From the IMG/VR virus record IMGVR_UViG_2880412407_000011: a DNA stretch of 64,000 nt, one strand, 5' to 3'. Numbering within the stretch: the stretch's first letter is position 1; each line of letters starts with the position of its first letter. Source of the DNA: a virus. Taxonomy: Duplodnaviria > Heunggongvirae > Uroviricota > Caudoviricetes. The position numbers are program-made. Below are positions 15,301 to 18,300 of the stretch, one piece after another.

Positions 15301-18300
15301 AAAATTCACTTTAAAAAGGGCGGCAGAGCAGCCACGGAGTAAAACTGATACCGCCAAACGTCACCAGAAAATTGATAACAGAGGGCGTTGCAGCGGGGTT
15401 GTCACTTAAGCGTATGGTCAACCTGACAACCCGGTGTCCTCAATGGGGAAGGAATAACCCCGCCATACTTACCGCCGCGCCATTTCGCGGAGTGCCACAA
15501 CCGGAAGCGCACGTTCGAAGAAATCTAACGACAAGCCTTCTAAGGGAAAGAGCTTCGCCGTACGCTTTCGCGTTATGCACTGACTTTTCAGGGAAATATC
15601 CTTTCAGTAAACTGTCAGTACCGGATTCTTATCCGTGTCCGGCGCACGACCACACGTGACAGCGTGTTGGTCTCCATTTTTAACCCAGAACCTCAATGGA
15701 GGATAAAATGCCAAACAAAAAAAGAAATCCGCTTATTGAAAAACAGATTGAATGCCTGGTAAATCAACTCAGGCAATCAGGGTTATTAAAAACTCATTCA
15801 GAGTTGAGGCTCACAGAATCAGCATTCGACGATAAATTAAATAATGTCCTTTATAATGGCATTATTGATTTTAATCGTTCTGTTGGTCGCCGCGGCCCTG
15901 CTGGTGTTTCCTTATAATTACCAGTCAATCCAGAGTGGACCGTGTTCAGCGTAAATATAACTGTACACATCCAGATTATATTTGTGGTCTGTTAAGAACA
16001 GGCCGCAAATACATGCCGAAGCTTCCAGTGCAGCGGCTCTGTTACTGAATAACCATGTAGCAACATTCCAGCGTTTTTCTGCATCCCAGTCTTTCTCAAG
16101 GCCTGATACCATGAAGAAACCGTTAGTGTTGCCATCAAATAATTCTGTTTCCAAATTTTTAAGCAATGCCTGATGGACTCTTGCCAGGTATTCCGCCGGA
16201 ATTTCGCCACGAATTCTGATGAGATTGTCATAAACAAACATGTTCCCCGCATATGGCGATTTTTCTTTCTTGTTTTTTAAACCAGCATCATGAGCAAACT
16301 GATCAATTTCTTCTTCCGTTGGTTTCGTATTGATGTTTTGCGCTGTCGTTTCTGCAATTTTATTTGCCACACTCTCTGAGTCGTGTTTATTTATAGACGC
16401 ACAGAAATACAATCCGGTAAACGCATCGCGCACATTACGAGCCATATTATCAGTGTCTTTTTTCGTTACCGATTCCAATTCAAGTTCGTTCAGACGATGA
16501 CGAAGTGTGTGTGCTGCAATCTCCTGGATTGAAGGAGGTAAATCTTTAAATTCCATCGTCAACCTCATCAGTCAGTGTTTCTGGCTAACCAGCGACGCGC
16601 GCCAGCTTCAGTTTTAAACGTTTTGCTTTTGGTATACGTCATCGCGGTGAACGTACCGTCCTGGTTGGGGAACACGCCACATACCAGAGATTCGTTGTTG
16701 CCAAGATTGAGCGTATCCATGTTGACCTCATTTCCCCTTAACGCCGGGGTAGCGGAACAAAAACCTGCTGCATAGTTATTAAAGTTGAACCCTGCCGTCA
16801 TGTTCTTACGCCTCGGGCTGGCTACTTAACCCCTGACCACTGCCTGGTAACTCGAAGTATTGCCCTGCATTCTGTGGGGCGGGGTGAGGGAATGAATGAA
16901 GTTTAGAAAAACGAACATTTAAGGTCAATGTTTTTTTATCAAAACATTTTAAGCAGGCAGCTGTTACGCCATCACTACGATGGCATACAGTTAATCAAAT
17001 AGATGAGGTTGGTTAAATATCTTGTTGAATTTTAAAGCATACTCCCAATATGCAAGATAGATCATCCAGCATAATTGAAGGGTAGCGAGGATTCGTGGGG
17101 ACTAAAAGAATATCCGGCCCTTCTATCTCCAGTTTGCGAATGACAGGCGTTGTGGTCCCTTTGGGTAAGGCAAGGACAATATTTCCTGGTTGTACGATTC
17201 GATCGGGATCAACAAAAACTGTTGAACCATTTGGGATGGAAACTCCACCACCAGATGTCGACATACTGTCACTCTCTAGAACAACAGCAAAGGTATTGGC
17301 CGGGATTTCTCCGACAAGCTGCACACAAGAGGTTATTGAGGAATTTTTCATATAATCACTCCAGCTTGCTGCCTGCTGAAGTGATAGTAGCGGAACCGTT
17401 TTTATCGGCGGTAAAGATAGATCAAGCGAATCACCTGTATTTAACTCTCCTCCATTAAGAAGCCAATTTTCGTTTACTTTCAATATCTTTGCCAGTGAAC
17501 TTATGTAACGCGAGGACGGCGCTCCTCCACCGTTCATCCATTGACTTACGGAGCCTTTTGATGCGCCAGTGGCATTGACAAGGTCTTTGCCTTTCAAGTT
17601 TAGCGCATGCATACGTTGGGTTATGCGTTCAGATATTGTTTGCTTGTTCATGTTTTGATTTTAAAACACAGATGGTTTTGTTTCTTGACTTTCTTTGGTT
17701 TTGATTATTAAACTTTTGGCGTTCAGTTTTATGGAGCGACTCATGAAAAAATCAGAAGTATTAGGCTATTTTGGCGGAGTTGTTAAAACAGCCGCCGCTC
17801 TAGGAACGTCAAAAACCACAGTCAGCATGTGGGGGGAAGACGTTCCGTGGAAATGGGCGTTGCTAATTCAGGCAGTCACTGCCGGGGCGCTCAAATATGA
17901 GTTACACATACCGACGGTTGTCATTCCCGATTCTGATCATAATCCGCCTTCTAACCAAGGGGGGATTCATGAAAATCAAGCATGAACACATCCGCATGGC
18001 GATGAATGCCTGGGCGCGTCCTGATGGCGAAAAAGTTCCGGCAGCTGGAATAACCCAGGCTTATTTTGAGTTGGGTATGACGTTTCCTGAACTGTACGAC
18101 GACAGCCATCCGGAAGCCCTGGCTCGCAATACCCAGAAAATTTTCCGCTGGATAGAGAAAGACACCCCTGATGCAGTTGAAAAAATGCAGGCTCTGTTAC
18201 CGGCGATCGAAAAGGCAATGCCGCCTCTGCTGGTGGCCCGTATGCGCAGTCACAGCTCTGAATATTACCGTGAGATCGTCGAACGGAGGGATCGGCTGGT

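Follow-up and report, generated by a model that had tools for sequence, protein, structure and literature searches.

In the Qin prophage of Escherichia coli K-12, the promoter dicBp is situated between dicA, the repressor gene, and ydfA, carries PL-like operators (PMC10448788; PMC5069750), is derepressed 22-fold in the absence of DicA, and yields one polycistronic ydfABC-dicFB-ydfD transcript with ‘no evidence for other promoters’ (PMC10448788). In CP-933P, a sister prophage of E. coli O157:H7, PL933P has three OL operators and is repressed ~100-fold by the CI analogue PaaR2, the slot of the cI operon proper is filled by the toxin-antitoxin (TA) pair paaA2-parE2, and the genes between PL and dicF in these prophages have no assigned function (PMC8630535). 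We analyzed a 64,000-nucleotide stretch of the Caudoviricetes virus record IMGVR_UViG_2880412407_000011 (hereafter, the window), in which a gene for an acidic protein of 212 aa follows ydfA and converges on a gene for a basic protein of 69 aa on the opposite strand. We propose, from sequence comparisons, that the C-terminal domain of the large protein (C-domain) and the small protein are inherited together as a functional pair, in which the small protein may bind the C-domain and modulate or neutralize it; we assign this reading a probability of about 0.5.

Conservation of the convergent gene pair

All three open reading frames (ORFs) that a first-pass annotation had recognized downstream of the repressor gene are present (16568..16720, 15918..16568 and 15708..15917), and its description of the 69-aa ORF, on the opposite strand with a GGAGG ribosome-binding site and meeting the large gene tail to tail, was borne out. 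The GGAGG motif (15698..15702) precedes the ATG by 5 nt, this Shine-Dalgarno (SD) sequence is invariant, and the two stop codons abut at 15917/15918 with zero spacing. The small protein is 69 aa long in its E. coli, E. albertii and Salmonella homologues alike, its gene has a ratio of nonsynonymous to synonymous substitution rates (dN/dS) of 0.12–0.29 at dS values up to 0.6, and a distant homologue (46% identity, E 3e-13) keeps the C-terminal motif RRGxPAGVxL. These comparisons show the small ORF to be a real gene. The two proteins are annotated, as WP_000394548.1 and WP_001133037.1, in hundreds of genomes, and because both genes are also under purifying selection, neither ORF can be put down to chance.

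The large ORF can be read in two ways. Its 216-aa form (pI 5.18) begins at an ATG (16568..16566) that overlaps the TGA of ydfA (16570..16568), so the overlap described by the first-pass annotation exists, and an ATGA coupling of this form with ydfA may occur. The start at 16556 (MEFKDL), which gives 212 aa, is the one used by the Prokaryotic Genome Annotation Pipeline (PGAP) and the PHROG profiles and has GAGG 6 nt upstream; we favor this shorter form. In two related loci PGAP called the large gene an N-terminally truncated pseudogene (L004, 2769-3407; L005, 2766-3404), yet the full 212-aa ORF (MEFKDLPISIQ...) is intact in both, and the call is probably an annotation artefact.

Comparison with relatives shows that the 212-aa protein is modular, with an exchangeable helical head (N-domain) joined to a conserved alpha/beta C-domain. 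The N-domain evolves rapidly (dN/dS 0.42–0.95) and the C-domain is constrained (dN/dS 0.06–0.20, with 0.37 in one closely related pair). In an exhaustive profile search more than 40 clusters matched just positions 1 to ~55–90, including a 147-aa protein in the early-left operon of Stx phages; the matches of phrog_1363, 9419, 6937 and 33007 were limited to residues 5–79. Only two matches were confined to the C-domain (the C-terminal ~115 residues). Distant C-domain homologues (P0177, P0189 and the viral contig L016) are 27–32% identical over the domain alignment, rising to 40% over a 91-aa BLASTP segment, and a stand-alone C-domain ORF was found in Salmonella. Residues invariant across the domain, P..[ST]M[FY][VI]Y.[DN]LI.I.G.IP..Y and FDG..NG, have no recognizable likeness to a catalytic site. 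A scan of genome contigs found no distant C-domain relatives, and a phage isolate collection contained neither the full 212-aa protein nor the 69-aa protein, its only relatives being N-domain relatives in Stx phages.

The two genes co-occur closely. Among 5426 complete E. coli genomes the small ORF was found in 596 (743 places) and the C-domain in 599 (750 places), and in IMG/VR the small gene is convergent with and abuts the large one in 74 of the 78 informative loci. More telling are the distant relatives. In two Salmonella loci (L009 and L010) the tail-to-tail pair lies in a non-lambdoid element beside an integrase, Phage_ASH/Derepression genes and C4-type antisense RNAs; here the large gene has lost its N-domain (MRLTMESKQ...EKSPYAG...), with the junction between the two genes intact. 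In L016, a C-domain 40% identical to that of the window (E 4e-14) is attached to a different N-terminus in a fusion with a helix-turn-helix (HTH) domain, HTH_3, and its gene converges with an 11-nt overlap on the gene for the distant small protein described above; the two L016 proteins match phrog_2151 and phrog_4274 independently. A profile search from the side of the small protein retrieved seven distant Salmonella loci (L099–L105), and all seven have a C-domain partner, convergent with an 11-nt overlap. This partner, of 286–307 aa, consists of an N-terminal region, HTH_3 and the C-domain, and is encoded by the second gene, after a Cox-type gene, of an element with an integrase, a C repressor and Cox (int/C/Cox). 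Since these int/C/Cox loci retain the convergent pair, the module is conserved in two regulatory settings of unrelated kinds, and in each it has its place just within the early operon that is repressed. Those elements of Salmonella and viral origin that have the distant module combine a P1/P4-like RNA immunity component with int/C/Cox; the C4-type antisense RNAs lie at 357-1062 (−) in L009, together with isrK, at 4273-4360 in L016 and at 3853-3940 in L017.

The setting of the pair in E. coli is a hotspot. The slot between ydfA/ydfB/ydfC and the dicF precursor is prone to recombination and holds alternative cassettes, of which the 212-aa and 69-aa genes are one; each encodes a minus-strand protein that starts MEFKDLP and has a variable C-terminus, together with its own small gene on the opposite strand. 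Besides the type in the window (C-domain A, 212 aa, with the 69-aa protein), we found a type with C-domain B (186 aa) and a CPxC...CPxH zinc-ribbon protein of 61–80 aa, and a third with a truncated large form and a 64-aa protein; K-12 has none of these cassettes. The sister cassettes conform to this rule: in L006, L007, L008 and L017 a different C-terminus goes with a different opposite-strand small gene. These genes lie at 2557-2799 (+) in L006, 2558-2743 (+) in L007, 2187-2381 (+) in L008, 2595-2885 (−) in L017 and 3026-3661 (−) in L088/L094, and the alternatives to the 69-aa gene comprise a zinc-ribbon protein (phrog_10133), phrog_4987 and a ~170-aa protein with a coiled coil and a zinc ribbon. 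Antisense-oriented small genes seem generally at home in this slot.

Several observations weigh against a functional pair. The counts from E. coli and IMG/VR could be explained by linkage alone, as adjacent genes co-occur trivially. The small gene is not strictly required, because intact C-domain genes occur without it: in three IMG/VR loci (L088, L094 and L098) the C-domain gene is intact (a ...WIDWFKG variant) and the convergent ~170-aa gene with a coiled coil and zinc ribbon stands in place of the 69-aa gene, and in ~3 E. coli genomes, likewise, the C-domain gene is intact and the 69-aa gene absent. Between the window and the related locus L012 the C-domain is near-identical (dS 0.06) and the small gene differs (dS 0.22), so recombination separates the two genes without allele matching. 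Finally, no convincing conserved sigma-70 site was found for a small-gene promoter. The best match of the promoter scanner (15680..15709) overlaps the ATG of the small gene and so could not serve it, and a candidate GTGACA-17-TTTAAC was set aside as it is not conserved in L003. A candidate -10 element, TAAACT at 15608-15613 (TAAACT, TATAAC or TATAGG in the alignment), lies ~8 nt upstream of the first hairpin of the structured block described below, by reading of the alignment only.

The most serious alternative is one that we consider possible but clearly less probable than a functional pair: the two genes would be unrelated neighbors in a cassette that moves as a block, the 69-aa gene an independent lysogen-expressed ‘moron’ such as bor of lambda and the 212-aa gene an unrelated early host-takeover or accessory gene. 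That every cassette type has some opposite-strand gene, and that these genes (69 aa; zinc ribbon, 61–80 aa; 64 aa; ~170 aa) are mutually unrelated, is what such a slot would produce, and both the C-domain genes without a 69-aa partner and the recombination breakpoint between the two genes agree with it. Against it, adjacency and convergence hold down to ~40–46% protein identity, and the pairing has survived a move to another type of element, where flanks and N-terminal architecture differ. The Salmonella locus L009 lost the N-domain and kept the junction of C-domain and small gene, and from the side of the small protein the C-domain is the partner in 7/7 distant loci.

A second alternative makes the relation stricter. 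The C-domain would be a toxin and the 69-aa protein its obligatory cognate antidote, as a TA or polymorphic toxin-immunity pair with a layout like that of pore-forming colicins. The likeness to those colicins is that a large gene under induction control has a small opposite-strand gene at its 3' end, a layout kept in 74/78 loci and in the distant relatives, and that the small product can be made while the large gene is repressed; an antidote on the unrepressed strand, the matching of variable C-termini by variable small genes across cassettes, and the joint decay of both genes in L011 would all be in keeping with it. There are also differences. The cassette proteins share no homology with the colicin systems and lack their membrane segments and lysis-gene context, and some loci do without the small gene. 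Both proteins are hydrophilic (grand average of hydropathy −0.48 and −0.53), with no transmembrane segment predicted in either and no hydrophobic helix in the model. The genes are convergent, unlike the co-directional, autoregulated bicistronic operons of type II TA systems, and no TA or defense family was recognized in them. The rare loci with a C-domain and no small gene (L088, L094, L098) argue against an obligate antidote, and the two genes show no matching of alleles.

The predicted fold points the same way. A model of the full-length 212-aa protein was poor (pLDDT 65.8); an AF2 model of the C-domain, built on an alignment with distant relatives, was better (pLDDT 81, pTM 0.75), and fold searches with it returned generic ACT-like sandwiches only. 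The C-domain may be described, in these generic terms, as an ACT-like two-layer sandwich with no conserved catalytic residues. The fusion to HTH in its Salmonella relatives is reminiscent of ACT/ArgR-C-type domains, but its order of elements, beta-beta-alpha-beta-beta-alpha-beta, departs from the canonical beta-alpha-beta-beta-alpha-beta, structural scores are in the generic range, and there is no sequence similarity. A Prp/YsxB-like cysteine protease, the top match in BFVD and among viral structures, was rejected: the Foldseek E value was 5e-4 but the TM-score was 0.40, and the C-domain family has no conserved Cys or His column. Partner binding, oligomerization or sensing is a better fit than toxicity for a small alpha/beta domain that is non-enzymatic and can be joined to an HTH or a helical head. 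The first-pass annotation had drawn from the convergent layout a regulation of antisense or toxin-antidote style. What holds of this is that the pair behaves as a unit over a long evolutionary distance, which keeps a relation of antisense or of partner/antidote style plausible, and we regard an obligate toxin and antidote as unlikely.

The same annotation could place neither protein in a family, and we obtained the same result: neither they nor the proteins of the sister cassettes had a family match in Pfam, NCBIfam, PADLOC or PDB sequences, and their PHROG families, phrog_2151 and phrog_4274, are both of ‘unknown function’. No match to a known early function came to light, and the plus-strand ORF proved conserved.

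Operon membership and predicted repressor control

Alignment to Qin of K-12 shows homology over ydfA and again throughout from the dicF precursor onward, and none at positions ~15650–16560. Because of the homology of these two segments, we assign the region, by sequence comparison, to an early-left operon of the Qin dicBF type in a lambdoid prophage of the E. coli O157 type. The minus-strand order is repressor gene, gap, ydfA, 212-aa gene, DicF, dicB, ydfD and exonuclease (Table 1), and a 1.3-kb stretch of the region is 100% identical across many E. coli O157:H7, O121 and O145 chromosomes. The YdfA-like protein is 86% identical to YdfA of K-12 (by eye), and ydfA and its Shine-Dalgarno leader align with their K-12 counterparts; a 77-aa reading of ydfA extending to 16801 was rejected, since it is not conserved in K-12, where homology begins near 16758. 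What had been described as a three-gene locus is thus a conserved first operon gene, ydfA, followed by a variable cassette of two. Qin and the window share ydfA, the dicF precursor, DicF, dicB and ydfD, as well as a promoter and operators, predicted from sequence in the window, between the repressor gene and ydfA. They differ in that K-12 has ydfB and ydfC and no cassette, whereas the window lacks ydfB and ydfC and has the convergent pair directly after ydfA. Their repressors differ too: that of K-12 is DicA, and that of the window is a cI-type protein with an HTH and an S24 peptidase domain, and therefore SOS-cleavable.

Directly downstream of cI is where the first-pass annotation had put these genes, and in terms of the map this is right, but the 212-nt gap between cI and ydfA (16802..17012) contains a promoter-like site and palindromes resembling repressor operators. 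The palindrome GTTTTN6AAAAC that flanks the PL-like promoter recurs in the OR-like region on the other side of cI, as a perfect copy (17652-17667) and as a copy with one mismatch (17698-17713). Because a PL-like promoter and operators separate cI from ydfA, as they do in the homologous systems, the minus-strand genes are best read as early-left, repressor-controlled genes lying outside the slot equivalent to rexAB.

Comparison with sister prophages supports this placement. In the sister prophage CP-933P/Sp12, whose immunity region comprises paaR2-paaA2-parE2, ydaS-ydaT and PL933P, the promoter and OL operators likewise precede ydfA-type ORFs ‘of no assignable function’ (PMC8630535), and L007 has the CP-933P layout with a cassette in the corresponding slot. 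A TA pair fills the cI-operon slot of CP-933P; that of the window is empty. The cassette of the CP-933P type also differs, being partly decayed and carrying C-domain B with the zinc-ribbon small ORF. Two of the sister prophages, L003 and L007, have a relBE/paaA2-parE2-type TA in the cI-operon slot, upstream of ydfA. These RelB/RelE(ParE)-type pairs, between the repressor gene and ydfA, lie at 3976-4454 in L003 and 3894-4372 in L007.

It follows that an exclusion or abortive-infection locus expressed in the lysogen, equivalent to rexAB and co-transcribed with cI, which is how the first-pass annotation had read the position, has a low probability, slightly below that of a toxin and its antidote. 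The genes share the strand of cI and the map neighborhood that rexAB and sieB occupy beside the repressor gene in lambdoid prophages; no intrinsic terminator was predicted between cI and ydfA, so that low read-through expression in lysogens could occur, a point against a strictly early role; and DicB, a product of this operon, is reported to give protection from some phages (PMC6832061). The rexAB genes of lambda, though, are transcribed from PRM together with cI and lie on its side of OL/PL, whereas the genes of the window lie beyond the PL-like promoter. Homologous promoters are strongly repressed in lysogen-like states, the toxic division inhibitors of the operon are incompatible with constitutive expression, and in the sister prophages the true cI-operon slot is the one occupied by relBE/paaA2-parE2. 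Neither cassette protein is homologous to RexA, RexB, SieB or a cataloged defense protein in Pfam, NCBIfam, PADLOC or PHROGs, with zero matches in PADLOC.

Elsewhere in the window, the 820-aa exonuclease at the distal end of the operon comprises an Exonuc_VIII N-terminal region and a C-terminal Rv2179c-like 3'-5' exonuclease domain, and its gene is broken by insertion sequence (IS) insertions in strain TR01. A sub-threshold match to an STnc100-like small RNA (sRNA; 15111-15320, −; 34.7 bits) covers the dicF-dicB intergenic region and the 5' end of dicB, and a second, full match (28093-28265, +; 104.7 bits) lies further right in the prophage. A sok antitoxin RNA (22603-22777, +; 113.5 bits) points to a type I TA system of the hok/sok kind in the prophage, in agreement with the annotation of a Hok/Gef gene in the identical locus of TR01. 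Two ALIL elements (IS3-family frameshift pseudoknots; 10419-10535, −, and 56306-56422, +) are identical and inverted and bracket the prophage body, and an IS009 RNA match lies at 4429-4627 (+); the ends of the prophage may be delimited or interrupted by these IS copies. Genes for tRNA-Met(CAT) (27071-27146, +) and tRNA-Arg(TCT) (27247-27323, +) lie inside the prophage; tRNA genes upstream of the late genes are typical for lambdoid phages of enterohemorrhagic E. coli (EHEC).

Table 1 Features of the cassette and its surroundings in the window
Feature	Position	Strand	Basis and remarks
Gene for 69-aa basic protein, pI 9.7	15708..15917	+	phrog_4274, E 1e-51; convergent with the 212-aa gene
N-domain of the 212-aa protein, residues 1-95	16272..16556	−	Helical, acidic; helices 8-24, 32-55, 60-73, 81-90
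C-domain of the 212-aa protein, residues 96-212	15918..16271	−	beta-beta-alpha-beta-beta-alpha-beta; motifs SPYAGNMFVYDNLIRIRGEIP and FDGNTNG
Conserved structured block	15621..15701	.	Alignment and RNAalifold, 12 diverged loci
ydfA homologue, 50 aa, first gene of the operon	16568..16720	−	Pfam DUF1391, E 1.2e-29; PGAP also 50 aa
Predicted PL/dicBp-like promoter	16928..16900	−	-35 TTGACC 16928..16923, 17-nt spacer, -10 TAAACT 16905..16900
Operator palindrome GTTTTN6AAAAC, perfect	16930-16945		Adjoins the -35 of the PL-like promoter
Weaker operator copy, 3 mismatches	16901-16916		Over the -10 of the PL-like promoter
cI-type repressor, 212 aa	17013..17651	−	Pfam Peptidase_S24, E 8e-13, and HTH_3; phrog_4, transcriptional repressor
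OR-like region	17652..17713		Between cI and the P22_Cro-type gene; two operator-like palindromes GTTTTN6AAAAC
P22_Cro-type gene	17743..17985	+	Library assignment
DicF sRNA, downstream in the same operon	15318..15369	−	Rfam RF00039, full length, 75 bits (gathering score 48), E 1.3e-15
dicB, 62-aa form	14955..15143	−	Pfam DicB, E 2.7e-36; PGAP on the identical locus
ydfD/DUF1482, distal operon gene	14770..14958	−	Pfam DUF1482, E 2.9e-15; PGAP on the identical locus
RecE/YdfE-type exonuclease, 820 aa	12215..14677	−	Exonuc_VIII and Rv2179c-like (Pfam)

A structured block upstream of the small gene

The ~90 nt upstream of the small gene are conserved in all versions of the module (L009, L016 and L099–L105 among them), down to those at only ~45% protein identity, and RNAalifold predicted three plus-strand hairpins. 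The first (15621-15642), invariant and more stable on the plus strand in 12/12 loci, includes a U.G pair for which the other strand would have an A.C mismatch. The second (15649-15671) has at least four compensated stems (CCACACG/CGTGTTGG, CCCAAC/GTTGGG, CCCGAC/GTCGGG and, in K-12, CTCCAC/GTGGAG), and its strand preference is mixed, with the minus strand favored in some loci. The third, formed by CUCCAU (15672-15677) and AUGGAG (15696-15701), is predicted to occlude the SD on plus-strand RNA; being invariant, it offers no evidence from covariation. Folding compared with shuffled sequences gave z = −2.05 for the plus strand and z = −0.79 for the minus strand, and no Rfam entry matched the block.

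K-12 Qin (L002) keeps hairpins 1 and 2 and has no small ORF, which makes the block part of the operon transcript as well. Together with the minus-strand preference of hairpin 2 in some loci, this tempers a reading of the block purely as a leader of the small gene. The dicBF transcript is documented to be processed by RNase III as well as by RNase E (PMC10448788), and the block is possibly such a processing element, a leader of the small gene, or both. That there is no plus-strand gene at all, and only an antisense RNA or a structured RNA that controls processing of the dicBF transcript, is in our view very improbable: the compensatory changes in the block, the K-12 hairpins with no ORF beside them and the documented RNase processing are as such a reading expects, but the dN/dS of the small gene over substantial synonymous divergence, its constant length in three species, the invariant SD and the C-terminal motif retained at 46% identity all speak for a protein, for which the block, real as it is, is no substitute.

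A possible convergent switch and its significance

The PL-like promoter, under control of the repressor, is predicted to drive ydfA, the 212-aa gene, DicF, DicB and YdfD, so that the large protein would be made early, after loss of the repressor, and would not be a product of the lysogen. If the two genes do form a functional pair, the 69-aa protein would be made from the opposite strand while PL is off, and would bind the C-domain and modulate or neutralize it. Because the genes converge without a spacer or a terminator, PL activity and small-gene transcription might be mutually antagonistic, through collision and through sense/antisense RNA, and the small protein would then predominate under repression and the large protein after induction.

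A wider and more tentative proposal, which on present evidence we hold to be doubtful, is that the pair is a new mobile two-gene ‘convergent switch’ module, common to lambdoid prophages and Salmonella int/C/Cox elements and serving phage-phage exclusion or anti-takeover. Were this true, the early large component would use its head, a helical adaptor or an HTH, to pick a target and would act on a process of the host or of a competing phage; the small component, expressed from the opposite strand in repressed lysogens, would antagonize the large one and so provide immunity against the effector of superinfecting relatives; and the structured leader that occludes the SD would add post-transcriptional control.

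We found no papers on ‘Ybl81’ and nothing on DUF1391 relevant to the cassette. The operon is known, and, to judge by the literature and family libraries searched, the cassette and its pairing are undescribed; in kind, it is an accessory cassette of lambdoid early-left operons with an unusual, conserved convergent architecture. It is carried by ~11% of complete E. coli genomes, mostly of EHEC and Shiga toxin-producing (STEC) lineages (O157:H7, O145, O111, O121), and lies inside the operon that makes DicF and DicB, products linked to cell division, metabolism and phage resistance; DicF has also been linked to virulence regulation in EHEC. For the annotation of such prophages, the locus illustrates that proximity to cI is no sign of expression in the lysogen when a PL-type promoter intervenes. 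As a ~900-bp, two-protein module that is under selection and has moved between unrelated types of element, the cassette is a target for studies of induction physiology and of competition between phages.

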